Positions 6,089 through 63,685 of a stretch of DNA of 64,000 bases are shown in pieces (positions within the stretch are counted from its first letter, which is position 1; each line of letters opens with the position of its first letter). The notes under the pieces are model-generated. The model searched no databases. It was not told where the DNA came from and saw only the letters and a program-made list of their open reading frames with translations. Both the position numbers and the translations under genes were made by a program. The DNA is from a virus, in IMG/VR virus record IMGVR_UViG_3300035633_000651, positions 45,678-109,677 of that record, one strand, 5' to 3'.

Positions 6089-6116
6089 ATAGTACGGTTT
6101 GGCGCCTCTCCGGGGC
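6089..6116 (-). promoter_or_regulatory. Putative late promoter GCCCCGGAG-N10-CCGTACTAT (copy 1)
   Basis: Same bipartite motif and spacing at 59004-59031 and 63658-63685, each just upstream of a minus-strand gene. Confidence 0.8.
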
Positions 6117-6129
6117 ACTACAAAAGTTT

Positions 6130-6155
6130 GACGATGTCAACGTGAGGATGTCAAC
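6130..6155 (-). promoter_or_regulatory. Direct pair of 12-bp boxes GTTGACATC(C/G)TC
   Basis: 6130-6141 and 6144-6155, between the divergent late and early promoters. Confidence 0.65.
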
Positions 6156-6162
6156 AAGCTTC

Positions 6163-6197
6163 TTGACAGACACCGGACAATGTCGTAAGCTGCCTGC
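6163..6197 (+). promoter_or_regulatory. Leaderless sigma70-type promoter with embedded dyad
   Basis: TTGACA gaca CCGG acaa TGT cg TAAGCT gcctgc ATG. Confidence 0.85.
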
Positions 6198-6965
6198 ATG
6201 TTGACGGACGACATCCGAGACAAACTGCGCAAACTCAACGCCCTCGCGGAGGGCGCGGGCACGCCTGAGGAGGCCGCAGCCGCCCGAGGTCGGATGGCCC
6301 GACTCTGCTTCAAGTTCGGCGTCACGATGGACGACGTCGAGCTGGAGGAGCCCCTCGTCGACGACGAGGAGATCGTCCACGAGGACGACCCCCTCTTCGT
6401 CCAGGCGAAGGTGATGAGCTGGAAATGGCGTCTGGCCGAGGGAATCGCGGTGGTCAATGGCGTCTTTCTCTATCAGCAGCAGGTCCCGTACAAGGTGTTC
6501 GACCCTAACCGAGGGTATTACCGGTACAAACGCAAGGGCGCCCTCATGATGGTCGGCAAGCCGACCGGCGTGCGCATGACGCGCTACCTCTTCCAGATGC
6601 TGCTCAACGACATCGAACGCCTGGCCAAGGTCTACTGCCGTGGGAAGTCGCGGAACTGGGGCGGCAACTGGCGCCACGGCTGCGTGGACACGGTCGCGAA
6701 GAAGGTCAAGGAAGCGTACGGGGAGGCCATCAAAGAGCTGCAGGCGGAGGGTGGCGGCAAGGCGCTGATCCGATTGCAGGACGCCATGGTCACTCTGAAG
6801 GACGCCGAGCGCTTCGCCCGGGCGCGCATGAACCTGACCAAGGGCACGTCGGGTGGCGTCTCGGCCGAGGCCGAGGCGCGAGCGGCAGGCCGCGCTGCGG
6901 GACACGGGATCAAGGTGTCAGGAGGGACGGCCATTTCTGCCGGTCGCCGGCAGTTGACGGGGTGA
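6198..6965 (+). CDS. DUF2786/DUF7168-type protein
   Basis: N-terminal IRDKLRKLNALAEG...EEAAAA...MARL..KFG signature. Confidence 0.75.
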   Translation: MLTDDIRDKLRKLNALAEGAGTPEEAAAARGRMARLCFKFGVTMDDVELEEPLVDDEEIVHEDDPLFVQAKVMSWKWRLAEGIAVVNGVFLYQQQVPYKVFDPNRGYYRYKRKGALMMVGKPTGVRMTRYLFQMLLNDIERLAKVYCRGKSRNWGGNWRHGCVDTVAKKVKEAYGEAIKELQAEGGGKALIRLQDAMVTLKDAERFARARMNLTKGTSGGVSAEAEARAAGRAAGHGIKVSGGTAISAGRRQLTG

Positions 6966-7321
6966 CACAGCCCGACTATGGTCAGGTGATGCCTGATGAT
7001 CACGCACGTGTAGAGGTACGATGCACCCCTGCAGAGAAGGAAACGATGAAGTCGCGCGCAGCTAAGGCCGGGTTTCCCGGACGCGGCTTCGCGACCTGGG
7101 CCCGAGCCGTGTTGCTCGGGCAAAAGCCCAAGACGGACCGACCACCGCCGAACACGAAGCTGCTCTCAGCAGCGGAAGCCGCAGACTACTGTGGCGTGTC
7201 CCGGCAGCAGATTTACGTCTGGGTCCAACAAGGAGAAGTGACGGGCTACGAACTGCCCGAGGGTCTTCGATTGGCGAAGACCGAACTGAAACACCGGCGA
7301 GCGGCAGCGCGCGCCAAGTAG
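6962..7321 (+). CDS. DNA-binding regulator: RHH-like N-terminus plus HTH_17/excisionase-like C-terminus
   Basis: VEVRCTPAEKETMKSRA...ATWARAVLL and LLSAAEAADYCGVSRQQIYVWVQQG. Confidence 0.7.
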   Translation: MTQPDYGQVMPDDHARVEVRCTPAEKETMKSRAAKAGFPGRGFATWARAVLLGQKPKTDRPPPNTKLLSAAEAADYCGVSRQQIYVWVQQGEVTGYELPEGLRLAKTELKHRRAAARAK

Positions 7322-7327
7322 GAGAAG

Positions 7328-7657
7328 ATGGCTATGACTGGGGAAGAAGGCACCAACACGACGAGAGTCTTCGCGCTCTTCGACACCGACGACGAAGTCG
7401 CTCCGCGAGAGCTACTGGACCGGAAGGATGTCGAAGACGCGAAGGCGCTCATCATGCGCTACATCGACAACGACGGTGTGACCAACATCGACACGGTCTA
7501 CAGCGACCCAAGCAGTCCTGGAGACCTGGACCTCTATCAGGCTGTCCAGGAGCTGCTCGACGAGGGGCTGATCGAAGGACCGGCGCTGGCGTCGTGCAGG
7601 ACGCACGAGGAGATGGAGTACCGTGGCACGGACAAGACGACAGCCGGCGTGGGCTGA
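7328..7657 (+). CDS. Hypothetical protein
   Basis: GGAG SD-like sequence upstream; operon packing. Confidence 0.6.
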   Translation: MAMTGEEGTNTTRVFALFDTDDEVAPRELLDRKDVEDAKALIMRYIDNDGVTNIDTVYSDPSSPGDLDLYQAVQELLDEGLIEGPALASCRTHEEMEYRGTDKTTAGVG

Positions 7658-7673
7658 GGGGCTCCGCAGCTTG

Positions 7674-7931
7674 ATGGGTCCGCTCGACGACGCGGCCATC
7701 GAACGCATCCAGGCATTCCTCGATGACCCGTCAGAGGAGACGTGGAACGGCTGCTACAGCCTCTGCGTCGGCGGCATGACCACCGTCTGGAAGGCGGTGT
7801 GCCGGGTCGACCCGGGCTTCCCGCGCTCGAAGAGCATCGGACCTGAGCCGTCGGGCTACGGCTGGCCACGCGTACCGGACCCGTTCACGGTCCGGCGAGC
7901 GCTGAAGGCGTGTCAGACCCAGGCCGCGTAG
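7674..7931 (+). CDS. Hypothetical phage protein
   Basis: MGPLDDAAIERI...; start uncertain. Confidence 0.55.
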   Translation: MGPLDDAAIERIQAFLDDPSEETWNGCYSLCVGGMTTVWKAVCRVDPGFPRSKSIGPEPSGYGWPRVPDPFTVRRALKACQTQAA

Positions 7932-8254
7932 CTCGGCGTGGACGACTCTGGCGCGAGGCAGACGGCACCCGGACGCCGGTCAAGGAGCTGCACGACCGGC
8001 ACCTGAAGCACATCGTGTGGATGTTCAAGAGTCGTGCCAACGATGAGCTGCAACAGTCCCTTGACGGACTCCGTACGCTGTGGGGACAACCGGGCATCGA
8101 GGCGCGCTACAGGCAACTGGAGCGCACGCCGTGGACGGCGGTGGCGAACCTGCTCGGAAAGGCCGAGCACCCGTACGCCTCGTTCGAGGACATCTACACC
8201 GAGGCCGTAGAGCGAGGCCTCGTCGAGGAGAGACCACGGAAGAGTTCAGATTGA
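7910..8254 (+). CDS. Hypothetical protein
   Basis: Fills the gap in the plus-strand operon. Confidence 0.55.
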   Translation: MSDPGRVARRGRLWREADGTRTPVKELHDRHLKHIVWMFKSRANDELQQSLDGLRTLWGQPGIEARYRQLERTPWTAVANLLGKAEHPYASFEDIYTEAVERGLVEERPRKSSD

Positions 8255-8595
8255 CTGAGGACCACATCAAGCTGCTTCGGCACATGTATGTTGGGTGGGA
8301 CGAGTGCGAGTTCGGTGCACCTTGCATCGACCCCAAACGCCCCTACGGCAACGGCGACGGTGTACAAGATATCGCCGAGATCCTGGGCATCGAGACGCCG
8401 AAGAGCTTCGAGCAGATGGACGAGGACGGCACCCTCGACACCTGGTACGAAGAGATGCACCCCAAGCTGTACACGCTGCACCGCCAGACGCTGCAGGCGC
8501 TGCAGATCGTGCTGTGTACGGGGTCGTTCGAGCCGGGGCTCTACCGGAGAGCGCGTCGCTACGACGCCCGCTCGTGGGAGCGCGTCGATGCGTAG
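8251..8595 (+). CDS. Hypothetical phage protein
   Basis: TEDHIKLLRHMYVGWD...IDPKRPYGNGD; start uncertain. Confidence 0.6.
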   Translation: MTEDHIKLLRHMYVGWDECEFGAPCIDPKRPYGNGDGVQDIAEILGIETPKSFEQMDEDGTLDTWYEEMHPKLYTLHRQTLQALQIVLCTGSFEPGLYRRARRYDARSWERVDA

Positions 8596-9325
8596 CCTGC
8601 GCAGGAGCATCGACGGGATGCTGTCCGACTTGCGTCGGAAGTGGCTCCATGTGCATCATGGGGACGGAGCGCTCGATAACCTGAAGTCGCACCTGGCTTC
8701 ATGGATCCAGCGCCTGGAGGAACTCAATGCGGGAAAAGCTGATTCACCTGACCCTGACGCTGGCCTTGACGCCCGTGGTCCTGACGATGGTGACGGGACT
8801 GGCGGTGATCCTCTGGGTCGCGGAGACCCGCGAGCACGCGTCTTCCTAGTCCGCGAGAACACCAGTCGCGACATGCCGACGCACCCCTTTCTCATCCCGG
8901 CCGTGACGACCGAGGGCGCGTTCTGGAACTACGCCGAGCGTGTGGCGCGCAGCTGGACGGAGCTGGAGGAGACCACGGACCAGCTCGACGTCATGGCCTG
9001 GGACGGCGAGCGCTGGCACTTCGCCGAGGTCTACTTCGACGTAGACACGTGGGACCGTCAGCTCGACGTCTTGGTGGACGGCGTGAAGTACGACCCGTCC
9101 GAAGACGTGGACGACGCGAGGCCAGGTGTCAGCCTACAGCTCGCGTTCATCAACCGCGAGACCTCCGAAGAGCGGCACTGCGCCAAGTGCCGCTTCAACG
9201 CATGGAGCGGGAATTTCGCGAACGACCATCACTACTGCCACCTCTACCGAGGCTTCATCCGCATGACGGACGACGGTAAGCACCTCCGCCTTCCCGCATG
9301 CAAAGAGAGCGAGCACACATCATGA
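8588..9325 (+). CDS. Hypothetical, possibly mosaic protein with a Cys-rich C-terminus
   Basis: C-terminal CAKC...HYCH...C; the middle section reads like an off-frame translation. Confidence 0.5.
   Translation: MRSLRRSIDGMLSDLRRKWLHVHHGDGALDNLKSHLASWIQRLEELNAGKADSPDPDAGLDARGPDDGDGTGGDPLGRGDPRARVFLVRENTSRDMPTHPFLIPAVTTEGAFWNYAERVARSWTELEETTDQLDVMAWDGERWHFAEVYFDVDTWDRQLDVLVDGVKYDPSEDVDDARPGVSLQLAFINRETSEERHCAKCRFNAWSGNFANDHHYCHLYRGFIRMTDDGKHLRLPACKESEHTS
8727..8849 (+). CDS. 40-aa single-TM peptide nested out of frame in 8588-9325
   Basis: GGAGGA SD then MREKLIHLTLTLALTPVVLTMVTGLAVILWVAETREHASS*. Confidence 0.5.
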   Translation: MREKLIHLTLTLALTPVVLTMVTGLAVILWVAETREHASS

Positions 9326-9442
9326 AAATCGGAGGCCGCGTCCGCTGGACGTCCCGAGCCGGACGCCATCTACTGGCCGCGTGTGTCTGCCCTGGAGGTC
9401 GTCTCGCATCTGACTTTTTTCGAAAATAGTTGACGTCTGCTC

Positions 9443-9477
9443 TTGACAGACGCCGGGCCCTGTTATATAGTAACAGC
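9443..9477 (+). promoter_or_regulatory. Leaderless sigma70-type promoter with embedded dyad
   Basis: TTGACA gacg CCGG gccc TGT ta TATAGT aacagc ATG. Confidence 0.88.
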
Positions 9478-10005
9478 ATGACGACGACGCAGCAGGCTCC
9501 CCGGACTCAGACCAACCGCCTCACCGCCCGCGCGGTGCACGACAACTTCGACCCCCGGATCGAGGCCATCGAGGCGGCCCTGTCCCGAGGCGCCCAGCCT
9601 AACTCCCTCTTCGCCAACGTGATGACCGTCTCCCTCGGCGTGTTCATCCCCGCCATCTCGCTGACCATGTCATCGCAGGCGGCCAACATGTTTCAGGCCG
9701 GTAACGTGGTCCTCGGCGGCGCCTTCGCGGCCCTGGTTTTCGTGGTCTTGGCGGTGTCCCTGACGCACCTCGCCGAGGCCGTCGAGGACTTGACAGGCTC
9801 CACTCGGTTCATCAGCTGGGCGACCGCCATCGCCTTCGACGCCTGCCTCGTGGCCTTCGAGGTCGCGCACAAGACGGTGGCCAAGGACGACTGGACCGTG
9901 ACCCTGATGATCGCCGTCGTGGCTATCATCTCGGCTGCGCTCAACGTCCACGCTTTCCGCCTCGGGCAGGCGCACCGCGTCGCTGGCGTGGGCCAGGCCG
10001 ACTGA
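9478..10005 (+). CDS. Multi-pass membrane protein (about 4 TM)
   Basis: Four hydrophobic stretches; start set by the leaderless promoter. Confidence 0.7.
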   Translation: MTTTQQAPRTQTNRLTARAVHDNFDPRIEAIEAALSRGAQPNSLFANVMTVSLGVFIPAISLTMSSQAANMFQAGNVVLGGAFAALVFVVLAVSLTHLAEAVEDLTGSTRFISWATAIAFDACLVAFEVAHKTVAKDDWTVTLMIAVVAIISAALNVHAFRLGQAHRVAGVGQAD

Positions 10006-10045
10006 GCCCTGACCCCTGAGGGGCCCCTTGCCCAAGGAGGTGACC

Positions 10046-11901: not shown

Positions 11902-11932
11902 CAAGAGCCGGGGAGTGTCATAAGGTCTGGGC
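11898..11932 (+). promoter_or_regulatory. Leaderless sigma70-type promoter with embedded dyad
   Basis: TTGACA agag CCGG ggag TGT ca TAAGGT ctgggc ATG. Confidence 0.85.
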
Positions 11933-20911: not shown

Positions 20912-21299
20912 GCGCTTTTACGTGGCCGCCACGCTGTCCGACCGAGACCTCGCTTCCCGGCTCATCATGTCCGCCCCTGCGAACTGGATGTGCACCTTCA
21001 ACTGGACCGAGGTGGAGCCGGCCAAACCCGACGTCACGGAGCGTCGCCGGATCGCGCTGTGCGAGGTGGCGGCCGTCCAGCACGCCGACCTGCTGGTGCT
21101 CTTGCTTCCTGGGGCTCGGGGTTCGCACACGGAGCTAGGGGTCGCGCTGGGGGCCGACATCCCGGTCTACATCACGTACCGCGCCGAGGACGCGCCAGCG
21201 CGCGACTGTGCCTTCTACTGGCACCCTGCGGTGCAGGGCCACATTCCCGTCGACGACCTGCTGATGGAGCCTTGGCCCGAGGTCTTTGAGAACTGTTGA
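20904..21299 (+). CDS. Nucleoside 2-deoxyribosyltransferase-like (NDT/DNPH1 fold) protein
   Basis: FYVAA...E..AVQHADLLVLLLPGARGSHTELGVALG. Confidence 0.7.
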   Translation: MSTRFYVAATLSDRDLASRLIMSAPANWMCTFNWTEVEPAKPDVTERRRIALCEVAAVQHADLLVLLLPGARGSHTELGVALGADIPVYITYRAEDAPARDCAFYWHPAVQGHIPVDDLLMEPWPEVFENC

Positions 21300-21327
21300 C
21301 ATCCTCTCGGGGGCTGAGTATGTCAAC
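21295..21327. promoter_or_regulatory. Inverted box pair / probable promoter-operator of ro60
   Basis: GTTGACATCCTC-N9-GAGTATGTCAAC. Confidence 0.65.
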
Positions 21328-24840: not shown

Positions 24841-25315
24841 GCTCGTCCTCCTCGTCCTCGTCGGGGACCGACGGGTCTCGCTGAGGGCAGACGTCCGGGC
24901 GCATGCACTGGATCCTTCCCTCATCGTCGACGGTCCACTCTTCGAGCAGTGCACCGCACAAGTCGCAGTTCGCGCTTGGGTCGGTCTCCGGCTCCTGCAG
25001 CCCTTCGAGCTTCGCAAGGGCCGCCAGCATGTCCGCCTGCAGTGCAGGAGGCGCCTTCGTTTTGACCTCGTCGATCAACGGGTCGACGGTGCCCTGCACG
25101 GTGACAACGAACTGCACGAGGCGTGCCTGGTCCATGACCTGCATGAAGCCGGCCTTACTGAAGCAGACTGCCAATCGTGCCATGCGGCCGTTGGCCTCGG
25201 CGAAGTCTTTGACGTACTCGACGTGGTTGCTGGCGTTCGACCAGTTAGGCCGAAACCCCATGCTCGACATGGTCTGGGCGATGTGTTGCGCCCGGGTCAG
25301 TTTTCTTGGCGGCAT
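24833..25315 (-). CDS. Hypothetical protein with a Cys-rich, acidic C-terminus
   Basis: AGGAG SD before MPPRKL; CDLC...C...C. Confidence 0.6.
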   Translation of the reverse strand: MPPRKLTRAQHIAQTMSSMGFRPNWSNASNHVEYVKDFAEANGRMARLAVCFSKAGFMQVMDQARLVQFVVTVQGTVDPLIDEVKTKAPPALQADMLAALAKLEGLQEPETDPSANCDLCGALLEEWTVDDEGRIQCMRPDVCPQRDPSVPDEDEEDELA

Positions 25316-26288
25316 ACCGTCTCCTGAGAGCGTAGAGCGTACGATCGTGTACGCCGAACGCCTGGCACGCCACGGCAGCGCCGACTTCGTCGGCCAAAGA
25401 GACGAGCGCACGTCCCTCTGACTCGGTGAGCGCCGCACCATCGAGCCCCAGTACCCGACGACGACGCTGTTCGGGATCCACAAGTCCCGAGGTTTCGAGT
25501 TCGAGCACGCGGTCCGTGTGACCGAGTGCTTCAACCAGTTTCGCAGCCGCCTTGCGGAAGACGCGACTGACGCCCGAGCTGCGGTCGAGGCTCATCGCTT
25601 CGGCCAGCCACCCGTGCAGGTTCGTATCTTGGCTTGCACCGCGGTAGCGTCCGGTCTGCGTGAGACAGAACCGGAGTACGCGGTACTCGCGAGTCGTGAG
25701 CGTGGCCCCGTCCTCGACCAGCTGAAGCGCCTGCGCAACGGGTGTCAGCTGCGGTTCGGGCTCGGGTTCCGGCTCAGGTTCGAGGAAAGGCTCAGGCGGT
25801 CCGGTCAGCACCTGTCCTGCCGTGACTTGCGCGTTCGTCTCGCGCAGCGACCACTCCAGGTCGTCATCGGTCGTGTCGAGCTGCATCGACCGGGCGTACA
25901 TGCGCTGCTTCTCGACGTACTTCAGTGCCCAGCCGGTCATGACGCCCTTCTTCGGACTGAAGAGGTAGTGCAGGGGCCAGGCGCGTTCTCCGAGCTTGTA
26001 CTCGCTCAGCAGGTACTCGACGATCGTGGACTGCACTTCGACCTTCAGACCTTCACGGTCGTCGACGCTGCAGTTCCGCTCGATGAACTTGACGGTCTGC
26101 AGGACCTTTGGTTCGAGCATCTGCAAGAGCAGACGCGTGGCTGCGTCGCGCTTGATGCCGAGCTTCAACCGACAGACGAGCAGGTTGATCACCAACACCT
26201 CGTCGCTTGGCGCCTTGGACGTGTTCCAGCACTTCCGCTTCAGCGGGCAGTTTTGGCAGTCCTGGCTGATGACCGGCAGACGACTCAC
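25245..26288 (-). CDS. Divergent sigma70-family factor with an N-terminal CxxCx5C motif and an extra C-terminal HTH
   Basis: Region-2-like helices; region-4-like LTTREYRVL...LAEAMSLDRSSGVSRVFRKAAAKL; second HTH ACQAFGVHDRTLYALRRR. Confidence 0.65.
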   Translation of the reverse strand: MSRLPVISQDCQNCPLKRKCWNTSKAPSDEVLVINLLVCRLKLGIKRDAATRLLLQMLEPKVLQTVKFIERNCSVDDREGLKVEVQSTIVEYLLSEYKLGERAWPLHYLFSPKKGVMTGWALKYVEKQRMYARSMQLDTTDDDLEWSLRETNAQVTAGQVLTGPPEPFLEPEPEPEPEPQLTPVAQALQLVEDGATLTTREYRVLRFCLTQTGRYRGASQDTNLHGWLAEAMSLDRSSGVSRVFRKAAAKLVEALGHTDRVLELETSGLVDPEQRRRRVLGLDGAALTESEGRALVSLADEVGAAVACQAFGVHDRTLYALRRRYAAKKTDPGATHRPDHVEHGVSA

Positions 26289-27433: not shown

Positions 27434-28014
27434 CCACGACGTCCCTTCGACTGACGCTTCTTGCGCTGCCAGGCGACCTGGTACTCGTGCCGCCGAGCAG
27501 CGGCGCACGGCCGACACCGGTCGACCTGGTGGACGCTGCTCTTCATCGCGTAGCGGACGTTCCCGCAGTCGCAGTGCAGCGCGTAGTTGTAGCGGTCGGT
27601 GTTGACCTTGCGGGTGACCGGATCTCCAGCGTCGTCGACTTCGACGACCTCAGGCTGAAGCCCGCCAGGTGCGGGATACCAGCGGGTTCCGTTCTTGCCT
27701 TCGATCGAGTCGTCCTCGACCTCTAGCTCGGGCAGAGGCGGAGGCACGTCGACCAGCATGGGCTCGTCGTCATCGTCGATGGACAGACCGTCGAGGCGCT
27801 GCACGTGAATGCGCGCGACGCCGTCGTGACGACGGGCGCCTTGGACCTCGGCGAGGGTGTAGCCTGGCACTCCGGACACCTCGATGTAGAAGTTGGCCGG
27901 GACGCCGGTGGGTTGGTCTGCCAGTTCTCGGTGGATCGCGTCAGCTTGGCCTTGAATGGCCAGGGTCAGGATGCCCCGGCCGACGGGCTCAGGATGCACT
28001 TCTGGTGAACCCAT
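27430..28014 (-). CDS. Hypothetical protein with a C-terminal Zn finger and basic tail
   Basis: CDCG...CRPC. Confidence 0.6.
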   Translation of the reverse strand: MGSPEVHPEPVGRGILTLAIQGQADAIHRELADQPTGVPANFYIEVSGVPGYTLAEVQGARRHDGVARIHVQRLDGLSIDDDDEPMLVDVPPPLPELEVEDDSIEGKNGTRWYPAPGGLQPEVVEVDDAGDPVTRKVNTDRYNYALHCDCGNVRYAMKSSVHQVDRCRPCAAARRHEYQVAWQRKKRQSKGRRG

Positions 28015-28292
28015 GCGTTCAGTTTCCCCTTGCGCAGCAGTCGCCAGTCGCCTCGGGCGTCTGTGACGTAGAACATGCTGCGCGTGCCCACGAAGCGCTT
28101 GGTCGAGCCGACGACTTGGAAGTCGGTGCTCGGGCCGGCGCGCACGTTGCAGGCTCGTTGTATCATGACGACGTCAACGTTGACATCATCAGGAGGCATC
28201 TCCCCGTTGAAAGTCACGTAGCGCATAAAGATGCCGCTCATGATTCCCGAGAAGAGACCGACGTACAAGATGCCACGGAGCAGATTTCCCAT
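27966..28292 (-). CDS. Membrane-anchored SH3b domain protein
   Basis: N-terminal TM; NVRAGPSTDFQVVG...GDW...AWV. Confidence 0.75.
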   Translation of the reverse strand: MGNLLRGILYVGLFSGIMSGIFMRYVTFNGEMPPDDVNVDVVMIQRACNVRAGPSTDFQVVGSTKRFVGTRSMFYVTDARGDWRLLRKGKLNAWVHQKCILSPSAGAS

Positions 28293-28328
28293 GGCGCGAT
28301 GTTGACATCCTCAACTGAGGCTGTCAAC
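28293..28328 (-). promoter_or_regulatory. Leaderless promoter overlapped by an inverted box pair
   Basis: Minus strand TTGACA-N17-CAACAT-N6-ATG; plus strand GTTGACATCCTC-N4-GAGGCTGTCAAC. Confidence 0.65.
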
Positions 28329-28899
28329 CCCCGACCTCGACAAACGTGAACGGGCGGTAGCGGGTTCGCCCGGCCGAGTTCTTGTAGGCCTCCAGGACCT
28401 GCCCTCGATTGCCCCCCGGGGCGCAGTCGTAGGCCACGTGGATCCACTCCCCGCCGAACTCCCAGATGAGCTGCCTGAACGCGCACTCGGTCTCGATGAA
28501 GTGCCCGAGCTTCCACATGTTCTCCGGCGTCTCGGGGCGGGTCTCGACGTCGGCGGCCCGGCCGTACATGTGGTCGCTGGTGCGGGACCCTCCCACAGCA
28601 CGGTTCAGAGCCTCCACGCGGAGCCCGGACGTGACGTGCAGAGGCATGCCGAGCCGCTCGCGTGCGGGCTGCAGGACGTTGTCGACGAGGGCGTCAAGGT
28701 TTCGCAGCTGCTCCTCGTTCGGCGTGTTGTCGATGCCGAGGCGCCGGGCCGTGGTGGACCGCGTGAACTCCGAGAGCCGGAAGTTCTCGGAGAGCTTGCC
28801 TTCCTTCAGCAACTCCTCGTTCTTGTCGACGAGGACGTACCGGACCTGCTTGAACTCCGGCTCGAAGAATCGGGGTGGCTCGAATTCGAAGCGCTTCAT
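28324..28899 (-). CDS. Peptidase M15A endolysin
   Basis: LSENFRLSEF, TSGLR...LNRAVGG...SDHMYGRAAD, WIHV. Confidence 0.9.
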   Translation of the reverse strand: MKRFEFEPPRFFEPEFKQVRYVLVDKNEELLKEGKLSENFRLSEFTRSTTARRLGIDNTPNEEQLRNLDALVDNVLQPARERLGMPLHVTSGLRVEALNRAVGGSRTSDHMYGRAADVETRPETPENMWKLGHFIETECAFRQLIWEFGGEWIHVAYDCAPGGNRGQVLEAYKNSAGRTRYRPFTFVEVGG

Positions 28900-49239: not shown

Positions 49240-51731
49240 GTCTCGTCGTCCTCTGCCTCGAAGTTCGCAGTCGGCGCGGTGTTGCCGGCGTCGCGAGAGG
49301 CGCGAATGTCGGCCGAGCGCTGACCAAAGCGCAGCGGGTAGTTGAGTGCCTGGCTCGCGAACCCGCCAATGGGCTCGTAGACCAGGCGGTCTCCGTCCAC
49401 GACCTGGCCGCCCCAGGCGCGCACGTACTTCAGGTCCATGCTCGTGGTCATCGAGCCGTTGAGTCCCCACGTCAGGTCGTGCGTAAGAGACACAGTGGTC
49501 GCCACGAAGGTGCGCTCCGAAAACTCCATCGGCCGGTTCGGGAAGCCCAGCTGCACGCGCGGCAGGACTTGAACCGTCGCCTTCTTGGCCTCGGCGTTGA
49601 TCTGGTTCAGCTTCACGTTGGCGTACACGCGGGCCGCGTTCTCGTTGCTGATGATTCCCATCGGGTCGATGGTCTCGGACCGAACGCCGAACTGCGGGAT
49701 GAGGCCGTAGAGGTTGACGGGTGCGAAGTTGCCGACGGTCTCCGACGCAGGCAGTCCAGCAAATTCAGGGATCAAGGACCACACCCCGAGCATCTGCGTG
49801 CGCACGTTCTCGTCGATGAACTGACGCTCCCAGCTGATGGTGTCGCGCTTGGCCACACGAAGCTGAGGTCCGAAGGGCCCCCGCTCGCGGTCCGTCCCGA
49901 CGTCGAACTGAATGTTGCCGCGACCTAGCCCGAGGAACTGCTCCAGGTTCAGGGACTCGTTGCCGAAGTCGTCCGGCTCGAAGTCGTACAGGGGCATCTC
50001 GCAGATGAGGTCACCCTTCGGGCTGCAGTAGAACTGGAAGTCGAGGCGCTCGACCACGTCGTAGATCAAGCTGAGTCGGGTGCGCCAGGTCGTCTGGGTG
50101 TTGACGCCGATGATGTCGTTCAGGAGCAGCTTCTGGTTCGTCGCAGGGCCCAGCGAGCCTGGGACCAGGAAGCACAAGCGTCCGAAGTCGACAGGGAACA
50201 GGTGCGGATTCTCGCCAATGACCCTGACGATGTCCTCCGTGACGAAGGTGCCGTCGGCTCGCTTTCGGATGTCCCCGCGCAGCGTCTCGACTTCGGTCTG
50301 CACGTCGGGCTCGGGCAGCGACATGTTCGTCAGGTCTGAGACGTACACGCGATGGTCGACGAGCGCTTGGTACTGCGCGAGCGAGTCGACGGTCGTTGCG
50401 GGCAGGTTGGCCCGCACCAGCTCGTCCCTCTCGGTGTTGGTCACGCCGTCGTCGAGCGGACCGAACACGGCGACGAAACTGCGGTCGAAGTTGTAGGAGC
50501 CCACGGCGTCTTCGAGAAGCGTGGACTCCGACTGCCCGTTCACTGAGTAGCGCAAATTCGCGAAGGTTCGCACGCCACGCACGTCCTCGGTGCCAGTCTC
50601 GCCCGTCGTACCTGCGCGCTCGGCGCCAAAGATGACGGTGAAGAGGAACTGCGGAAGGTTCAGGTCTGCGAAGCCGTCGTTGAAGAAGGTCCGCGTAATC
50701 GCGTCGCTGGCCACGGCGGCGGCCTCAATGTCGAGGATGCCTGGGTTCGTCGTGAGGCGGGCGTACCGCAAAATGCGCGACGCGTCCTCGAAGCGGATAC
50801 GCACGAGGCGCTGGTCATTCTCGTCGACCACGTCCGAGTAGTCCGACACAAAGCCCGCAAACATGTGGTACCAGCGAGCAGCGTCGGTCGGGTCGCGCCA
50901 GAAGATGCGGACCTGGTCGTTGCTGTGAAAAATGCTGTCGCCCGTATGGAAGGGGTAGCGCAGGACCTGTCCGTTGAGCTGCTGAAGCCCTGCGATCGAC
51001 TGCGAATTGAACGGGTCGACGAGGTTTGGCTGGAAGTTCGCAAGCTCTTGTCGAACGTTGAACTTCGCGAGCAGCACGCGGCGCTTCACAGGGTCCTCGA
51101 TGCTGGCTTCGATGCGCTCGCGCACGATGCGGTCGAGCTGTGCCGAGCGTGCAGCGACCCGCGTCTCCAGGATGTTCTGAGTGCGGGCTTCTGTGCGCTC
51201 GCGTGCAGTGTTCAGCGCGATGGACTGACGCAGCGCCTCTCGGCGGTACTCCAGCTCGGTCTGCCCGCTGGTCTGAAGCTGCTGCTGGATAGCCGGCTCG
51301 TCGAGTGCAGGGTCGCCGGTCAGAAGCTCTGGGCTCAGAGTGGCTGCAGCTTCGAGGAGCGTCGGCAGGACGGGCTGCGGACCGAAGTCGATGTCGACCG
51401 AGCGGTCTTCGGTCAAGACCTCCTGCAGGACGTCCTTCAGGTCAGGGAACCGGATCGCTGGCAGCTCATCCTCGATGCCGTAGAGCGTGGCGATGTCCCG
51501 CTCGGTCATGATGTAGCGGTCGGTGTTGAAGGAAGGCGCCTGCGGGCTTTCGGTGTCGCGACCCTGAAGCTGTCCGCGGGTACCTCCGTTGACCAATGTG
51601 ACCTCGGCCGTCGACGGCGCCCGAGACTCGGAGCCGGTGTAGTTGATGATGCACCGCGTGATGTCCTCGGTGACGTCGACGCCGAAGATGAAGACTCGCC
51701 ACGCTGGAAAGTATGTGCGGACCTCAGCCAC
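49236..51731 (-). CDS. Baseplate hub, gp27-like
   Basis: RVFIFGVD, FAGFV, FYCSPKGDL motifs; position in the operon. Confidence 0.7.
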   Translation of the reverse strand: MAEVRTYFPAWRVFIFGVDVTEDITRCIINYTGSESRAPSTAEVTLVNGGTRGQLQGRDTESPQAPSFNTDRYIMTERDIATLYGIEDELPAIRFPDLKDVLQEVLTEDRSVDIDFGPQPVLPTLLEAAATLSPELLTGDPALDEPAIQQQLQTSGQTELEYRREALRQSIALNTARERTEARTQNILETRVAARSAQLDRIVRERIEASIEDPVKRRVLLAKFNVRQELANFQPNLVDPFNSQSIAGLQQLNGQVLRYPFHTGDSIFHSNDQVRIFWRDPTDAARWYHMFAGFVSDYSDVVDENDQRLVRIRFEDASRILRYARLTTNPGILDIEAAAVASDAITRTFFNDGFADLNLPQFLFTVIFGAERAGTTGETGTEDVRGVRTFANLRYSVNGQSESTLLEDAVGSYNFDRSFVAVFGPLDDGVTNTERDELVRANLPATTVDSLAQYQALVDHRVYVSDLTNMSLPEPDVQTEVETLRGDIRKRADGTFVTEDIVRVIGENPHLFPVDFGRLCFLVPGSLGPATNQKLLLNDIIGVNTQTTWRTRLSLIYDVVERLDFQFYCSPKGDLICEMPLYDFEPDDFGNESLNLEQFLGLGRGNIQFDVGTDRERGPFGPQLRVAKRDTISWERQFIDENVRTQMLGVWSLIPEFAGLPASETVGNFAPVNLYGLIPQFGVRSETIDPMGIISNENAARVYANVKLNQINAEAKKATVQVLPRVQLGFPNRPMEFSERTFVATTVSLTHDLTWGLNGSMTTSMDLKYVRAWGGQVVDGDRLVYEPIGGFASQALNYPLRFGQRSADIRASRDAGNTAPTANFEAEDDET

Positions 51732-56499: not shown

Positions 56500-58983
56500 T
56501 TACGCGGCCTGCGCGAAGAAGGGGTTGTCCACCGAGTACTGGCCGAACAGCCGCAGGGCGGGGTACCGGAGGTTGAAGAAGAAGGAGAAGTTGTACTGCG
56601 TCGGGTCCGTCGGGCTCTGCTCCACGATGATGTCCTGGTTCAGGTCGATGGCCCGACGGTTGCCGTTCGGGTCGGTGTACGGCCCGATGGCGCCCTCGGC
56701 GACCGCACCAGTGAGCACGTTCGCGATGAACTGCTTGATGTCGATGATGAAGTCGGCGACGTCCACCGGCACGATGCCGACGACGTTCGCGTCCAGCGCC
56801 TGGCGAACCTGACGACTGATGTTGTCCTTCTGGACCGAAGTCGACCACTGCTCGAACTGGATGAGCCCGCCGCCGGCGCGCTCCGTCGAGATGGGGTCGA
56901 GCAGCAGGAACCGGCCCGCGTCGAAGGTGACGACCGTGACGCCGGCGCTCGCCAGCGCGGCGCGCTCCGAACGCACCCACGGGGTGAAGTCGTCCTCGTT
57001 GGCCCGGAAGCCTGCGACCGAGACACGCACCAGGGCGTCGGCCGGCGAGGCGAACGACGCGAGACGGCCGACGATGGCGCAGGCCAGGTAGGTCGAGTCC
57101 AGGGTGACAGTCTCGATGGAGCCGTCCTCCAGGAGCAGCTCCTTGCGGATGCCCTCGATGCCCGGAGGCGCGACCAGCATCAGGCGACCACGCGCCGGGG
57201 AGTCGGGCGCGACCTGCAGTGTACGGGCTGCGCGGAAGACCAGGGTGTCGGCGGTGTCGCGGTCTCCGATGGCCGTGTTGACCGGCATGCCGAAGTAGCC
57301 TCGGCGGAAGTTCTGCTCGATGGGGCCCGACTGGTCCTCGACGTGTTGGAGCAGGCGAACCTGGACGTCGAGGTCCGTGTCGAGCACGACGATGTCGGTT
57401 GCAACCGAACGGGTCGCCGCCGCGTCGAGCGAGGCCTGGATTTCGACGGGCGCCGGCGTGCCGGGGTTGGAAGCGTCGTCGACCTGGACGACCAGAATGG
57501 ACGGCGCACCGTTTCGGAAGATGATCTCCGAGCCGATGGACAGGGGGTTCGTGGCGGACAGTGGTCCAGTGAACTCCAATGCCTGGTCCAGCGTGAAGAA
57601 CTGGCGCGGGTTGTCGTAGTCGGCCGCGGGGCGCGTGAACTCGTAGGTCGCGAAGTACGTCGACCCGAGAGCAGGCGCTGCACCAGTGCCGTTGACGGTC
57701 AGGTTCTGCGTCGCGCCGAGCCCGAAGATTTCGGTGGTGGCGTCGAGCGTCGCAGGGTGACGGATGGTCACGGAGCCTGCGCTGCCTGCCGTGGGCGAGG
57801 TCAGGACGACGCGGTTGTTCGAGACCGAAGCGACGCCGCTGTAGGCGGGGCCGTAGGTGGTCGACGCACCGACCACCGCGTTGATGTTGGCAGCGACTTC
57901 CGCAGGCGTCGCAGCGCTCGGCGAGGCGGGCGAAGCGTAGCCGAGCGGCGCCGACCCGAGTCCGTTCAGGTCGATGTCGATCGTGGCGCGTCCGTCGAAG
58001 GCGAGGCGGAGGACGTCGTTCGACGAAAGGTCGAAGCCGAGCGTGCCGTCGACGCCCTGCGTGGTCGCAGCGACGAGCGCCGTGGACCAGTTGAGCACGC
58101 CCGCCGAGGGCACCGCGTAGTCGGTGGCCTGACGGAAGGTGGTGACACCCGGGAAGGCGCCGACGCGGATGAAGGTCTGCGCGCCAGCGTTCGCGACCGA
58201 GTCGGCGACGTCGTCCCGGTCGATGTAGTTGATGGTGTAGGCGGCGACGGCCGAGTCGAAGGCGACGTCGGAGATGCGAATCACCGTGGCCGACTGCAGG
58301 GCGGTGCCGAAGAGCGCCGCCGAGGCGTCCGTGGTGATGGCTGCCGCGATCGTGATGTTCGAGTTCACACCGCTGACGGGCGAGGTGAGGAGGATGCTGC
58401 CCGAGCTGTCCGAGGCGACGCTGGCGTAGTTGGACCCGTAGCCGAGCGCAGTGGCCGCGGCGAGGGCTGCGTTGATGCCGGCCGCGACTTCAGCGGCGGT
58501 CGCTGCAGCACCTGCGGTGCCCAGCGCAGTCGTGACGTCGATCTGGGTGCCGTTGATGGCGACCGCGGAAGCGCCGTCGGTGAGAGTGATGGTGACCGCC
58601 TGGCCCTGGTCCATCTGGAGGACGAAGGCGTTGTTGGTCGAGACGTCGAAGGTCTCCGAGGTGGTCCCGGTCAGCGTGGCTGCGGGGTAGCTGATGTCGT
58701 CGTCGCTCAGAGCCACGCCGTCAGCGAAGACCGTGGTCTCACCGACCCGACGCGTGCCTCGGCCTGCGAGCGTCGCGATGTGCGGGCTGGTCCCGGAGAC
58801 GGTGAGCGCCTCGCCGGACACGAGACCCCGAACGATGTCCTCGTTCACCGCCCGACGCACGCGGCTGCCGTTCGCGATCAGCGTGGGGAGGATGGGGAGC
58901 GTCTGGAGGTTCAGCGCGCCGGGCGCGATGACCTCCTGGATGTAAACCCCAGGGTCAACGTAGGTCGAAATCTGCAGCGCCAT
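56500..58983 (-). CDS. Contractile tail sheath protein
   Basis: PGVYIQE at the N-terminus; C-terminal DPTQYNFSFFFNLRYP. Confidence 0.9.
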   Translation of the reverse strand: MALQISTYVDPGVYIQEVIAPGALNLQTLPILPTLIANGSRVRRAVNEDIVRGLVSGEALTVSGTSPHIATLAGRGTRRVGETTVFADGVALSDDDISYPAATLTGTTSETFDVSTNNAFVLQMDQGQAVTITLTDGASAVAINGTQIDVTTALGTAGAAATAAEVAAGINAALAAATALGYGSNYASVASDSSGSILLTSPVSGVNSNITIAAAITTDASAALFGTALQSATVIRISDVAFDSAVAAYTINYIDRDDVADSVANAGAQTFIRVGAFPGVTTFRQATDYAVPSAGVLNWSTALVAATTQGVDGTLGFDLSSNDVLRLAFDGRATIDIDLNGLGSAPLGYASPASPSAATPAEVAANINAVVGASTTYGPAYSGVASVSNNRVVLTSPTAGSAGSVTIRHPATLDATTEIFGLGATQNLTVNGTGAAPALGSTYFATYEFTRPAADYDNPRQFFTLDQALEFTGPLSATNPLSIGSEIIFRNGAPSILVVQVDDASNPGTPAPVEIQASLDAAATRSVATDIVVLDTDLDVQVRLLQHVEDQSGPIEQNFRRGYFGMPVNTAIGDRDTADTLVFRAARTLQVAPDSPARGRLMLVAPPGIEGIRKELLLEDGSIETVTLDSTYLACAIVGRLASFASPADALVRVSVAGFRANEDDFTPWVRSERAALASAGVTVVTFDAGRFLLLDPISTERAGGGLIQFEQWSTSVQKDNISRQVRQALDANVVGIVPVDVADFIIDIKQFIANVLTGAVAEGAIGPYTDPNGNRRAIDLNQDIIVEQSPTDPTQYNFSFFFNLRYPALRLFGQYSVDNPFFAQAA

Positions 58984-59003
58984 TCAGCCGGGTCCTCGCC
59001 GAA

Positions 59004-59031
59004 ATAGTACGGTGAGGACGACCTCCGGGGC
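59004..59031 (-). promoter_or_regulatory. Putative late promoter (copy 2), upstream of the sheath gene
   Basis: GCCCCGGAG gtcgtcctca CCGTACTAT. Confidence 0.82.
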
Positions 59032-59042
59032 CGAGTCAGGGT

Positions 59043-60185: not shown

Positions 60186-61450
60186 CAGAAGATGTCCGCG
60201 TAGGGAGGTTCATTGTCCTGCGCACGGCGCTCGTCGAAAGACTGGTGCGTGAAGGTGCCGAACTCCTCGTTCCACTTGAACGAGGAAAGGACGACGCGGT
60301 CGCCGGTCTTGATGCCGGTCGCGTGCTCGTAGAAGGGGTGCGGTCCCGGGGCCCGGTCGATGATGCGCGCCTGCGGCGTGTCGATGCCGATGCCGGTGTC
60401 GAAGAAGTCGAGCGGCATGGTCCAGCTGCGGTCGGTGAGCCACTCGACCAGCGTGCCGCGGCCCGTGTCAGACTGCGCCTGCTCGACCACCCAGGGACGG
60501 AGCACGAGGATCTGCCCAGGCTCCAAGCGTCCGCGGAGCGCGGTCAGCTGGGCGGTCCGGTAGCGGTCCGACTGGACGTGACGCGCTCGCACCGCGCTGA
60601 AGAACGACGAGGGCTGGTCGGTCGAGGTCCGCGTGATCGTGACGCGGAAGATGAGGAAGCCGTCGCCGGCCGGGGGCTGGACGCCCGAGCCCGTCAGGTG
60701 GAAGGTGGCGCCGGCGTCGAAGGAGTACTCGACGGTCACCGAGCCGCCCACGCCCCGCGTGTAGGTGTCGGTCGAGAAGGACCAGACGTCTCCGTTCGGA
60801 TTAGAGTACGGAATCGCCGCGGTCGTCAGGGTTCCGGTCAGCGCCGTGTCCACGAGGCGCAGATAGTTCGGCTTGAACTTCCGCTCTAGCTCCAGGTTGT
60901 TGAGCCCGGCCCCGTTGGTCGTCACGGCGGCGCCTGCCGGGACCAGCGTCGAGGGGTCCCAGGGCAGCGCAGAGAGCGCTCCAGGGACCGTCAGCGTGGC
61001 AGACAGCACTGAGCCCGTCGGTCCCACCAGGCCAGCAGAGAGGCCGCTGGAGGCCACGACGCCGCCCGTGAGCCCCGGGCTCAGGACCGCCCCCGTTGGG
61101 CCGACCAGGGACGCGCCCAGCACGTTGTTCAGCGGAACCAGAGAGTCGACCTGGGTCGCCGTGAAGAAGAGCGTCTCGTGCAAGAACCGTAGATAGCCCG
61201 GAACGAAGCCCGTGCCGTAGCACTCGGGGCACGGACGGTCGTTGGCCTGGTTGGTGTCCTTGCGGCAGGAGCACTCGATGCCCGAGGTCACAGGTTGGTA
61301 CAGGAAGACCGCCTGTCCGCGAGCGAGCAGCTTGTCCTGCAGCAGCGCACGGATCTTGGCCGGCGACTGTTCCTGCTCGATGCGCTCGTAGGGCGAGCGC
61401 CCCCAGTAGCCGACCGCCTTGGGGGAGCCTGGGACCTTGTTGCACGGCAC
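60185..61450 (-). CDS. Neck / head-closure-like protein with a Zn motif
   Basis: CSC...CPECYGTGF; position in the operon. Confidence 0.6.
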   Translation of the reverse strand: MPCNKVPGSPKAVGYWGRSPYERIEQEQSPAKIRALLQDKLLARGQAVFLYQPVTSGIECSCRKDTNQANDRPCPECYGTGFVPGYLRFLHETLFFTATQVDSLVPLNNVLGASLVGPTGAVLSPGLTGGVVASSGLSAGLVGPTGSVLSATLTVPGALSALPWDPSTLVPAGAAVTTNGAGLNNLELERKFKPNYLRLVDTALTGTLTTAAIPYSNPNGDVWSFSTDTYTRGVGGSVTVEYSFDAGATFHLTGSGVQPPAGDGFLIFRVTITRTSTDQPSSFFSAVRARHVQSDRYRTAQLTALRGRLEPGQILVLRPWVVEQAQSDTGRGTLVEWLTDRSWTMPLDFFDTGIGIDTPQARIIDRAPGPHPFYEHATGIKTGDRVVLSSFKWNEEFGTFTHQSFDERRAQDNEPPYADIF

Positions 61451-61452
61451 GG

Positions 61453-62517
61453 TCAGCTACCCCGGAAGAAGATGTTGCGGAAGAGCGCGCCGTTCGGCGC
61501 CGAGCTGATGAGCTGCGCGATCCGGAAGTTGGTGCCCGCCTGGATGTGGAGTGAGCCGGTCTGCACGAACTTGTACTTCATTCGCGGGATGAGCTTGTCG
61601 AGGCGTGCCGTGACCTGGTTCAGAACGTTCGCCAGCTGCGGCGCGTGCTGAATGACGAACGTGTTGCCCTGGTCCGAGTACTGCGGGATGTCCGTGTCGA
61701 TTGCGAAGAGCTGCTGCGACATCACGCCCGCGATCAGGCTCGACTCCAACAGCACGTACAAGAACTGCCGCGGGAATTGGTCGAGCGAGTTGAAGACCGG
61801 GTAGGGCTCGTAGGCGTTGATGATCGACAGCCCCTGGTCGAGGTACTGAAGCAGCTGCGTGTCGGTGTAGCCGAGAAAGCAAGACTCGTCGTCCACTGCC
61901 TTTCGGCACTTGTCGATGAGGTCGCGGAACGGCGGCAAGAAGGCCAGCGTATTGACCGTCGCGACGCACAGGTTCTGGACGACCGACTGCTGCTCTTGGC
62001 CGGGCGCGGAGGCCTGCCAAAGAAACCCGAAGAGACCGGGCATCGCCGTCTCGGTGTCCCCGCCCGGAGCCGCGACGTCGCCCCACTCGATGTAGTAGCG
62101 TCCGACGCCCTCACGCACGATGCGGGTGGGTTTTGTGGCCTGTGCGCCGGTCGCGCCTGCTGTGTGGGCCGCGGTCAAAACCAGGCTGGTCGCCCCGCTA
62201 ATGCTTTCTACCACACGCGTCTCCCCTCCAAAGGTCAGGGAGTCGCCGACGCGTACTTCCTCTGTGAAGCGCGTGTTGGTTCCGGTGACGAGGGTCTGCC
62301 CAGCGGTGACGGACACCGTACCCGTCAAGGTGAAGACCGGGAAGGCGTCCTTGTAGACGATGTTCGAGCCGAGGTCCTGGACGGTGAGGCGTGGGCCGGG
62401 CGCGGTCGCATCGACAAGCACCTCGGGCGACACGGAGTCGTCAAACACACGGATGTTAATCCGCTCCTGAGTGTTGACAATAGCCAGCTCCGAGGTGTTT
62501 GCGATGATCGTGGTCAC
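61453..62517 (-). CDS. Neck / head-tail adaptor-like protein
   Basis: YTDTQLLQYL...IN; N-terminal fibre-like beta insert. Confidence 0.6.
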   Translation of the reverse strand: MTTIIANTSELAIVNTQERINIRVFDDSVSPEVLVDATAPGPRLTVQDLGSNIVYKDAFPVFTLTGTVSVTAGQTLVTGTNTRFTEEVRVGDSLTFGGETRVVESISGATSLVLTAAHTAGATGAQATKPTRIVREGVGRYYIEWGDVAAPGGDTETAMPGLFGFLWQASAPGQEQQSVVQNLCVATVNTLAFLPPFRDLIDKCRKAVDDESCFLGYTDTQLLQYLDQGLSIINAYEPYPVFNSLDQFPRQFLYVLLESSLIAGVMSQQLFAIDTDIPQYSDQGNTFVIQHAPQLANVLNQVTARLDKLIPRMKYKFVQTGSLHIQAGTNFRIAQLISSAPNGALFRNIFFRGS

Positions 62518-62948
62518 TGGTTGCTCGCCCAGGCTCCCAACCCAACCAGGCCGCCGCCCACCAGGACGCCCAGACCGATCAGGAAGATGGGCTCCCGGAA
62601 GAGCCCCGAATTCCGCTTGACCTCCTCACTATACGCATCGAGCGCAGTGTCCGCCAGCTCGGCGTTGGACTGCGCGATGCCTTCGACCACCTGCAGCGAG
62701 GTCGTCGCCGTGCGGATCTGCTGAAGCTGTAGGTTGATGACGCGCTCTTGGTCTCGAACGACAGCGGTGAGCGTCGCGGTGCGCGTGAGTTCAAAGAGGA
62801 TGCGGTCTGCGTCCGAGCGCGGGAACCAGACGCCGGGCTCTCCGTCGACGGTGACAGGCTTGGAGCGTAGGGGCTCCTGCGCGAGCACGGGCGCGGACGC
62901 GAGCAGCAGGCTACAGAGAAATGCGGTTGAAGCGTGCAGAAATTTCAT
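62514..62948 (-). CDS. Signal peptide + coiled coil + C-terminal TM protein, possibly spanin-like
   Basis: Topology inferred from sequence. Confidence 0.55.
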   Translation of the reverse strand: MKFLHASTAFLCSLLLASAPVLAQEPLRSKPVTVDGEPGVWFPRSDADRILFELTRTATLTAVVRDQERVINLQLQQIRTATTSLQVVEGIAQSNAELADTALDAYSEEVKRNSGLFREPIFLIGLGVLVGGGLVGLGAWASNQ

Positions 62949-63231
62949 CGGCGGTCAGTCCCTTGTCTGCATAGGATTCTTCGAGACGCCGCTTCTTCTC
63001 GTCAAGCTCGCCGGTGATCTTCTTGATCTCGGCCTCGTTGCCGCGGAAATCGTCCAGCAGCTCGCCCAGGCGCTCGCGCTTCGCTTCGACGTCGCGCTTG
63101 TGCCACTCGACCATCATGTCGACGGAAGCCTTCAAGGCGTCGGAGCGGCGCCCCTGCACGTAGTACCAGACCACGACAAGGGCACCCGCGCCGACCGCGA
63201 GGCCGGCCAGGAGCCAACCCCACCACTTCAT
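62911..63231 (-). CDS. N-terminal TM + coiled-coil protein, i-spanin-like
   Basis: Topology inferred from sequence. Confidence 0.55.
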   Translation of the reverse strand: MKWWGWLLAGLAVGAGALVVVWYYVQGRRSDALKASVDMMVEWHKRDVEAKRERLGELLDDFRGNEAEIKKITGELDEKKRRLEESYADKGLTADEISARFNRISL

Positions 63232-63235
63232 GGCG

Positions 63236-63646
63236 TCAGTCCGAGGCTTCCTGGATGAGCTTCTGGACGAAGCCCGACGACAGGCCGGCCATCACGCCGG
63301 CGATGACCGCGGCGAGGACGGAGGCGCCTGCCATGGCCGAGCCGACACCAGCGGCCGCACCAACGAGGAGCAGCATCAGCAGGGGGCGGACCCAGTCGAG
63401 CCTGGTCTCGGGTCCGAGGGCGGCCTTGATGGGGCCGAAGTTCAGGGCCACCATGCCGGCCGCAAAGATGGCCGCGAGGCCTGCGAGCAGTCCGCCGTTG
63501 CTGAAAGCTTCGACGATGGAGGGGATGGTGCCGACCAGGTCCTCCAGGGAGGCGTCAGCGGCGGTCGAGGTGGCCGTACCCATGTCCTGAGCGAACACGA
63601 CCAAGGGGACGAACATCAGTGTGACGAGGGCGTAGAAGGTCTTCAT
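63236..63646 (-). CDS. Multi-TM membrane protein, holin-like
   Basis: Signal-like N-terminus and about 3 TMs; first gene after a late-promoter motif. Confidence 0.55.
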   Translation of the reverse strand: MKTFYALVTLMFVPLVVFAQDMGTATSTAADASLEDLVGTIPSIVEAFSNGGLLAGLAAIFAAGMVALNFGPIKAALGPETRLDWVRPLLMLLLVGAAAGVGSAMAGASVLAAVIAGVMAGLSSGFVQKLIQEASD

Positions 63647-63657
63647 GGCTCACCGGC

Positions 63658-63685
63658 ATAGTACGGCGAGCAAGACCTCCGGGGC
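63658..63685 (-). promoter_or_regulatory. Putative late promoter (copy 3)
   Basis: GCCCCGGAG gtcttgctcg CCGTACTAT. Confidence 0.82.

Follow-up and report, generated by a model that had tools for sequence, protein, structure and literature searches.

Repeated intergenic motif upstream of virion genes

We analysed a 64,000-nucleotide (nt) stretch of viral DNA (hereafter the window), corresponding to positions 45678-109677 of the 109,677-bp IMG/VR record IMGVR_UViG_3300035633_000651 (G000; GC content 64%, estimated to be 66% complete). The subject of this analysis is a two-block motif, GCCCCGGAG-N10-CCGTACTAT, that stands in front of blocks of virion genes, together with a gene at 25245-26288 whose product is a candidate for the factor that reads it. 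Unless stated otherwise, coordinates refer to the window. The motif has three exact matches there, all on the minus strand, and these and the genes that directly follow them (sizes in amino acids, aa) are:

6089..6116, minus strand: candidate late promoter, copy 1, GCCCCGGAG-AGGCGCCAAA-CCGTACTAT; exact match, heading a leftward block of virion genes
5065..6081, minus strand: first gene after copy 1, an open reading frame (ORF) of 338 aa
59004..59031, minus strand: candidate late promoter, copy 2; exact match, before the gene of an 827-aa sheath-like protein
56500..58983, minus strand: first gene after copy 2, 827-aa sheath-like virion protein, named from position and synteny
63658..63685, minus strand: candidate late promoter, copy 3; exact match, before a small membrane-like gene followed by tail/neck-region genes
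63236..63646, minus strand: ORF of 136 aa after copy 3

The fixed 10-nt spacing at three sites, first reported in an initial annotation of this DNA, is not expected by chance; dinucleotide-preserving shuffles contain 0.01 matches on average, and none of 100 shuffles gave three. Tolerating up to three mismatches revealed no site in the window beyond the exact ones. All three copies lie in non-coding gaps of 42-108 nt, and outside these gaps the virion genes of the minus strand follow each other with almost no intergenic spacing. Measured from TACTAT, the start codons are 7 nt (ATG at 6081), 20 nt (ATG at 58983) and 11 nt (ATG at 63646) away, in agreement with the 7-20 nt given initially. For copy 1, the ORF finder places an ATG at 6090 that overlaps the motif; 6081 is the likely start codon. 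Across the whole record there are four exact copies, every one on the minus strand, and the heptamer GTACTAT is found nowhere else on either strand.

That the motif heads gene blocks also held up, these being blocks of virion genes, but the labels "sheath" and "membrane/neck" attached to two of them found no independent confirmation. The 827-aa protein has no match in Pfam, PHROGs or the sequences of the PDB, and we call it sheath-like only because its gene precedes that of a tube-like protein (phrog_985) and because of synteny with related genomes. It has 68 homologues, and is 44% identical to Rctr197k_065 of a related virus introduced below; a single-protein search of viral contigs found none, while an alignment-based search found 31 loci. 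The 136-aa protein has no Pfam or PHROG family match. Copy 3 is abutted on its upstream side by a 10-11-bp hairpin (~63689-63716). A conserved terminator before each site was considered and rejected, as hairpins are present but no better than in shuffles.

The motif has the geometry of a promoter

Early genes on the plus strand are preceded by near-consensus TTGACA-N17-TAnnnT boxes located exactly 6 nt from the ATG. Six such early promoters occur in the window, including those at 6163, 9443, 11898, 13505 and 17488, and one of them shares a divergent gap with copy 1, facing the opposite way:

6163..6191, plus strand: reference early promoter, TTGACA-N17-TAAGCT-N6-ATG

Since the ATG follows TAnnnT by 6 nt, these boxes point to leaderless messages read by the host. 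The late sites share this arrangement. Counting all nine sites known from three genomes (described below), a pyrimidine and then a G occupy positions 6-7 after TAT at 9/9, so that the G stands 7 nt after TAT, as at the leaderless early promoters. Late start codons lie 7-12 nt after the hexamer, except for the sheath-like gene in both lineages that carry such sites. For the 338-aa gene this geometry would give an mRNA without a leader or with one of a single nucleotide, and for copy 3 the predicted start is the G at 63651. The predicted start at copy 2 (G at 58997) gives a 14-nt leader opening with GAGGA; in both lineages, the predicted leader of the sheath-like gene is 14-15 nt long and opens with GAGGA or GGAGGA.

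These are properties of promoters of the sigma-70 family: the nine sites consist of two blocks at invariant spacing, in sense orientation and in non-coding DNA, with the -10 element 6-8 nt before a purine start that follows a pyrimidine (9/9). The initial annotation had described the motif as unlike the sigma-70 consensus. This is true of the upstream block, which holds no TTGACA -35, but TACTAT fits the sigma-70 form TAnnnT. Promoters of extracytoplasmic function (ECF, group 4) sigma factors follow the consensus GGAAC-N16/17-CGT; here only ~10-11 nt separate CCGGAG from CGT, and the sites do not fit this spacing.

An element acting at the RNA level is a poor description of these sites. The two blocks are not complementary and the ten bases between them vary freely without compensation; no Rfam family matches the window, and folding at the motif sites is no better than in shuffles. 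Together, these results argue against an RNA structure.

Conservation in a companion contig and in virus Rctr197k

Among viral contigs, the motif occurs beyond G000 only in IMGVR_UViG_3300035633_000512 (G001; 53 kb, GC 64%, estimated to be 32% complete). This contig holds one exact copy and one copy with a single mismatch (GCCCCGGAA), both on its plus strand and 10 and 8 nt before ATGs. The second copy lies between the portal gene and the genes of the protease/scaffold and major head proteins, which is where the initial annotation had expected a further copy, before capsid genes. G001 and G000 have no proteins in common. Their far ends overlap by ~0.7 kb, of which only 64 nt align at 90% identity.

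The relationship between the two contigs becomes clear from virus Rctr197k (GenBank KX853510; 197 kb), which comes from a methane-oxidising enrichment culture and whose proteins show 30-50% identity. G001 is syntenic with 8.8-61.3 kb of Rctr197k (helicases, DNA polymerase I, ribonucleotide reductase, terminase, portal, protease and major head protein); G000, read in reverse, matches Rctr197k in gene order from 61.8 kb on (neck-region, sheath-like, tube-like, baseplate and fibre genes). As both contigs are syntenic with Rctr197k and together amount to one genome equivalent, they are complementary parts of closely related genomes. All five gene-proximal copies in G000 and G001 are oriented with the virion genes.

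Rctr197k itself contains no match to the G000 motif, even at up to three mismatches. Instead, the sites that head three of the syntenic blocks carry a motif particular to this virus, ATTTAGGACCGGA(C/G)G..CGGTCTTATCC:

Rctr197k 31249: before Rctr197k_033, the counterpart of the gene after G001 copy 1
Rctr197k 71953: before Rctr197k_065, the counterpart of the 827-aa gene (G000 copy at 59004), with the same spacing
Rctr197k 143672: head of the block syntenic with the left arm of G000, the counterpart of the G000 copy at 6089

Both motifs contain the core CCGGA-N13-GT[AC][CT]TAT-N5-YG, which is common to 9/9 sites in a single register in the three genomes (this count includes the copy in a CRISPR spacer, discussed below). 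Searching the three genomes with this core gives zero-mismatch hits only at the nine sites, no one-mismatch hits, and two-mismatch hits at chance level. A shared core within different lineage-specific motifs indicates an element whose position and geometry are conserved but whose sequence is particular to each lineage. The Rctr197k-type motif was not found in viral contigs, and a megablast search of the window end against isolated phages gave no match. In the closest relatives, the sheath-like protein is 65-85% identical and the candidate sigma factor 49-74% identical. In the high-GC relatives L050 and L055, nothing recognisable as the motif precedes the sheath-like genes.

Taken together, placement, geometry and conservation suggest that the motif is probably the promoter class of the phage's late (virion) genes, most likely read by a sigma factor of its own. 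About five such promoters (three in G000 and two in G001) would then serve ~100 kb of virion genes.

A divergent candidate sigma factor of the phage

The candidate for this reader had already been named in the initial annotation, and structure prediction gives it the fold of a sigma factor:

25245..26288, minus strand: phage sigma-70-family factor, 347 aa, candidate reader of the motif; identified by AlphaFold2 and structural matches

In sequence searches, the protein has no match to the Pfam sigma models (Sigma70_r2, Sigma70_r4 and Sigma70_r4_2) or to PHROGs, the only hit being a weak one to HTH_23 in its C-terminal domain; Sigma70_r2 has no match anywhere in the genome. A profile search of PDB sequences with the alignment of the protein family returned nothing useful. 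We built an AlphaFold2 model from an alignment of 33 homologues (mean predicted local distance difference test score, pLDDT, 84.7). With this model, sigma factors dominate the Foldseek list, although all E-values exceed 0.1. In an exhaustive structural alignment against 48,161 PDB chains, sigma factors account for nearly all of the top 35 matches (Z 7.4-11.3).

The predicted layout comprises an N-terminal Cys cluster, a sigma2 domain (~28-135), a PEPE linker, a sigma4 domain (~177-260) and an extra C-terminal helix-turn-helix (HTH). The sigma2 part matches SigW (Z 9.2, root-mean-square deviation (rmsd) 3.2 Å over 93 residues), SigC domain 2 (Z 8.8, 88/89 residues aligned), SigA domain 2 (Z 8.3, rmsd 2.5 Å) and T4 gp55 (chain 7d7d_F, Z 8.2). 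For the sigma4 part, the matches include SigD4 (Z 8.0, rmsd 2.5 Å, 68/68), sigmaE region 4 on -35 DNA (Z 7.8) and SigF (Z 7.7, rmsd 1.6 Å, 57/57). Conserved segments fall in both domains: the aromatic-rich ERAWPLHYLF..GW..Y in region 2, and EYRVLRFCL followed by a helix-turn-helix in region 4. The protein is thus predicted to fold as a factor with sigma2 and sigma4 domains, and its lack of a Pfam sigma match alongside this fold makes it a very divergent member of the sigma-70 family.

G000, Rctr197k (gene 100, 33% identity) and the viral contigs G007 and G008 carry the sigma gene in one copy each. A de novo search for repeated words in G007 and G008 gave no late-promoter candidate. We saw no other repeated motif that the sigma factor could serve, and its co-occurrence with the motif in two lineages, together with the lack of another candidate, suggests that it reads the motif. 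The only other HTH candidate found is a 102-aa tandem-HTH protein, which is not conserved in Rctr197k. It is encoded in the tRNA-rich early region (genome 17121-17429, plus strand), and both of its units score against Sigma70_r4 (45 bits). A single-subunit RNA polymerase (PF00940) gave no match in the phage, but the control genomes gave no match either.

An operon of genes for SH3-like, WYL-domain and P-loop-like proteins leads into the sigma gene with no gaps. The only gap upstream of this operon (28293-28323) is where we find a possible promoter:

28299..28327, minus strand: candidate sigma-70-type promoter, TTGACA-N17-CAACAT-N6-ATG 28292, from reading of the sequence

TTGACA and ATG are as far apart here as in the early promoters, and a GTTGACAGCCTCA/TGAGGATGTCAAC palindrome overlaps the site. 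Such a promoter could let the phage sigma accumulate before late transcription.

The proposed sequence of events is as follows. Host RNA polymerase with the host primary sigma would transcribe the plus-strand early genes from TTGACA-N17-TAnnnT, and probably also use the weaker promoter at 28327-28299 to express the minus-strand operon that ends in the sigma gene. The divergent two-domain phage sigma would then replace the host sigma on the core polymerase, its sigma4 domain reading the upstream block GCCCCGGAG (~-34 to -26) and its sigma2 domain reading CCGTACTAT (-15 to -7). Transcription would start at the invariant G, 7 nt after TAT, giving late mRNAs with leaders of 0-6 nt; the exception would be that of the sheath-like gene, with a 14-nt leader that opens with a Shine-Dalgarno sequence.

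Several observations weigh against this scheme. The co-variation of sigma factor and promoter is seen in two lineages only. The sigma gene is encoded on the strand of the late genes and directly adjoins the genes upstream of it, and its early expression would depend on one weak candidate promoter. The spacing of the motif fits neither the ECF arrangement nor a sigma-70 promoter in which 17 nt lead to an identifiable -35. Finally, no homologue of the sigma factor is detectable in IMGVR_UViG_3300017963_000003 (G004; 192 kb), a complete but distant relative whose sheath-like protein is 38% identical, so another factor might read the upstream box. This genome contains at least 11 sites of the form TTTAGAATCCCGA-N12-TAnnnT on one strand before genes, with an upstream box that resembles that of Rctr197k. 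The sites can also be written TTTAGAATCCC(G/C)A-N12-TAnnnT (e.g. at 51575, 58825, 64869, 100231 and 156269, minus strand).

Other possible readers of the motif

The most serious competitor to a phage sigma, although we regard it as unlikely, is an activator. Here, the holoenzyme with the host primary sigma would read the late promoters through TACTAT as -10, a phage activator on the upstream box would replace the -35 contact (as in T4 middle sigma appropriation or class II activation), and the phage sigma would serve other promoters. TACTAT does match TAnnnT, and the upstream box resembles the MotA box of T4, with 13 bp between its end and the -10 and its centre near -30. G004 fits this picture too: its box is related, its -10s are of the sigma-70 type but variable, and it has no detectable sigma homologue. 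Against an activator, each lineage conserves 9-12 nt of its -10 region. Primary sigmas need an A at -11, yet the -10 of Rctr197k is TCTTAT, which lacks it. In terms of T4 middle promoters, where the box lies 12 ± 1 bp before TAnnnT, the G000 sites (13 bp, TACTAT) fit, whereas TCTTAT of Rctr197k does not. No other repeated motif for the sigma was seen, and the 102-aa tandem-HTH candidate is not conserved in Rctr197k.

It is far less probable that a host alternative sigma recognises the motif and that the phage borrows the promoter of a host regulon. The presence of the motif in both G001 and G000, which share no proteins in their sampled parts, could on its own suggest a reader on the host side, but the two are complementary fragments of related genomes. 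In addition, the sequence of the motif changes between phage lineages at orthologous sites, and when 185,579 species were searched, one genome per species, the only exact match lay in a metagenome-assembled genome of Planctomycetota; we judged it to be chance, as its locus has no proteins in common with these phages. Counting this one, all exact matches in metagenome and genome collections (4 + 1) were dismissed as chance; their GC contents range over 50-73%, they share no proteins with the phage except for a generic transposase-like match, and their context relative to gene starts differs.

Least probable of all is that the motif is no promoter and works at the RNA level or as a DNA site of another kind. 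It might be a signal for processing or translation, comparable to the start-associated sequences of cluster K mycobacteriophages, or a set of self-sites through which the phage's CRISPR guide (spacer 1) regulates the phage itself; although it lies directly before start codons and is wholly contained in a spacer, the non-complementary blocks, the lack of an Rfam match, the shuffle-level folding, the geometry shared with bona fide early promoters and the spacer's differences from every genomic copy (at least 11/39 positions) all speak against it.

A copy of the motif in the phage's CRISPR array

The initial annotation had called for a scan of the whole genome. The fourth exact copy in G000 is not the promoter of a gene block. 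It lies ~4.8 kb to the left of the window (genome 40873-40900, minus orientation), inside spacer 1 of a CRISPR array with seven repeats (36-nt repeat) and six spacers, next to a TnpB/Cas12n-like gene. Spacer 1 (genome 40864-40902; L001 1492-1530) is 39 nt long, is flanked by repeats on both sides as a spacer should be, and sits on the side away from the degenerate last repeat, farthest from it. It contains the whole 28-nt motif plus the following YG.

The ten variable bases and the flanks of spacer 1 differ from those of every genomic copy, with the best match covering ~28/39 positions, and of the first nine bases, the expected place of a type V seed, most are mismatched. On sequence grounds, spacer 1 cannot guide cleavage of its carrier's own sites. 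Because its variable bases are unlike any genomic copy, its probable source is the equivalent promoter in a related rival phage. A search of viral contigs with the 30-nt core of the spacer found no target, and none of the metagenome matches to the motif carries its variable bases; that scan would have caught an exact protospacer.

We tentatively suggest, while rating the idea at somewhat less than an even chance, that the phage's RNA-guided nuclease is aimed, via this rival-derived spacer, at a competitor promoter that is hard to mutate, and that the variable bases spare the phage's own copies. As the captured core is intact, the spacer might even fire as a promoter itself, late and sigma-dependent, in the antisense direction relative to the gene of the nuclease.

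CRISPR arrays that phages carry and direct at their competitors have been described (PMC7162821). The present array resembles those described there in being phage-encoded and in having spacers that do not match the carrier genome but resemble the DNA of relatives; it differs from those accounts in that a spacer holds the complete conserved core of the carrier's own class of late promoter. A spacer bearing a promoter is a hint of rival phages attacking conserved regulatory DNA in one another.

Spacer 2 (L001 1567-1606) has 17 and 15 exact bases in common with the relatives L046 (14753-14769) and L033, respectively. Its reverse complement reads as a gene start (MKKFFGD), and it may also target the gene start of a relative.

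Comparison with known phage sigma factors

A close parallel is gp36 of coliphage phiEco32, a two-domain phage sigma (sigma2-like at the N-terminus and sigma4-like at the C-terminus) that serves middle and late promoters (PMC12276001). Both systems combine a two-domain phage sigma, the host core polymerase and a two-block phage-specific promoter in a switch to later genes, though here these features are predicted. The sigma described here is larger (347 aa), with an N-terminal Cys cluster and an extra C-terminal HTH, its promoter sequence is unrelated, and its messages are predicted to be leaderless or nearly so. No helper resembling gp79 was identified, and no sequence similarity to gp36 came to light, although no search aimed at it was made.

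In SPO1 (gp28 and gp33/34) and T4 (gp55), sigma factors of the phage take over from that of the host in a cascade, with a distinct promoter consensus for later genes. The cascade proposed here, from host sigma to a phage sigma with distinct promoters for later genes, has the same logic. T4 gp55 has no sigma4 domain and reads only the -10, whereas the present factor has both domains and a two-block promoter. The SPO1 cascade is covered in PMC13401047. Pseudomonas phage PaBG and related large phages have no polymerase of their own and encode sigma factors, and Rctr197k lies close to the PaBG group by capsid and terminase phylogeny, according to excerpts of PMC7412058 and PMC7824862. Those excerpts describe no cognate promoters for the PaBG-group sigmas.

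A phage sigma with its own late promoter is a known strategy, and the unusual part is the promoter-bearing CRISPR spacer. The present analysis adds a concrete candidate pair of sigma factor and promoter from a poorly known clade of large environmental phages, the relatives of Rctr197k. A second lineage with a different cognate sequence at the same sites provides a natural start for orthogonality tests. The suggestion that early and late messages are both leaderless narrows down which hosts are possible.

Neighbouring elements

A lone box of the early type (TTGACA-N16-TAAGGT) lies at 1249-1276 on the minus strand, inside the 819-aa reading frame of a virion gene; an internal promoter and a coincidental match are both possible. 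A region of small genes in Rctr197k (129917-141965, plus strand) contains seven occurrences of the word TGCTATAAAGTGAG, all on the same strand; the word is probably part of an early promoter class of that virus.

Another motif, (C/G)GATGTCAAC or GAGGATGTCAAC, recurs in intergenic DNA of the window at 6132-6155 (plus strand), 21295-21327 and 28301-28328. At 6.1 kb, two direct repeats of it stand between the late and early promoters, and the Ro60 gene and the gene at 27966-28292 are each preceded by it in inverted repeats. The motif has the look of an operator for some regulator.

Lastly, a Peptidase_M15_3 endolysin-like gene (28324-28899, minus strand) is followed by a gene for an SH3-like protein (27966-28292, minus strand). 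These two form a predicted lysis cassette, which has the tail-fibre genes on one side and the operon ending in the sigma gene on the other.

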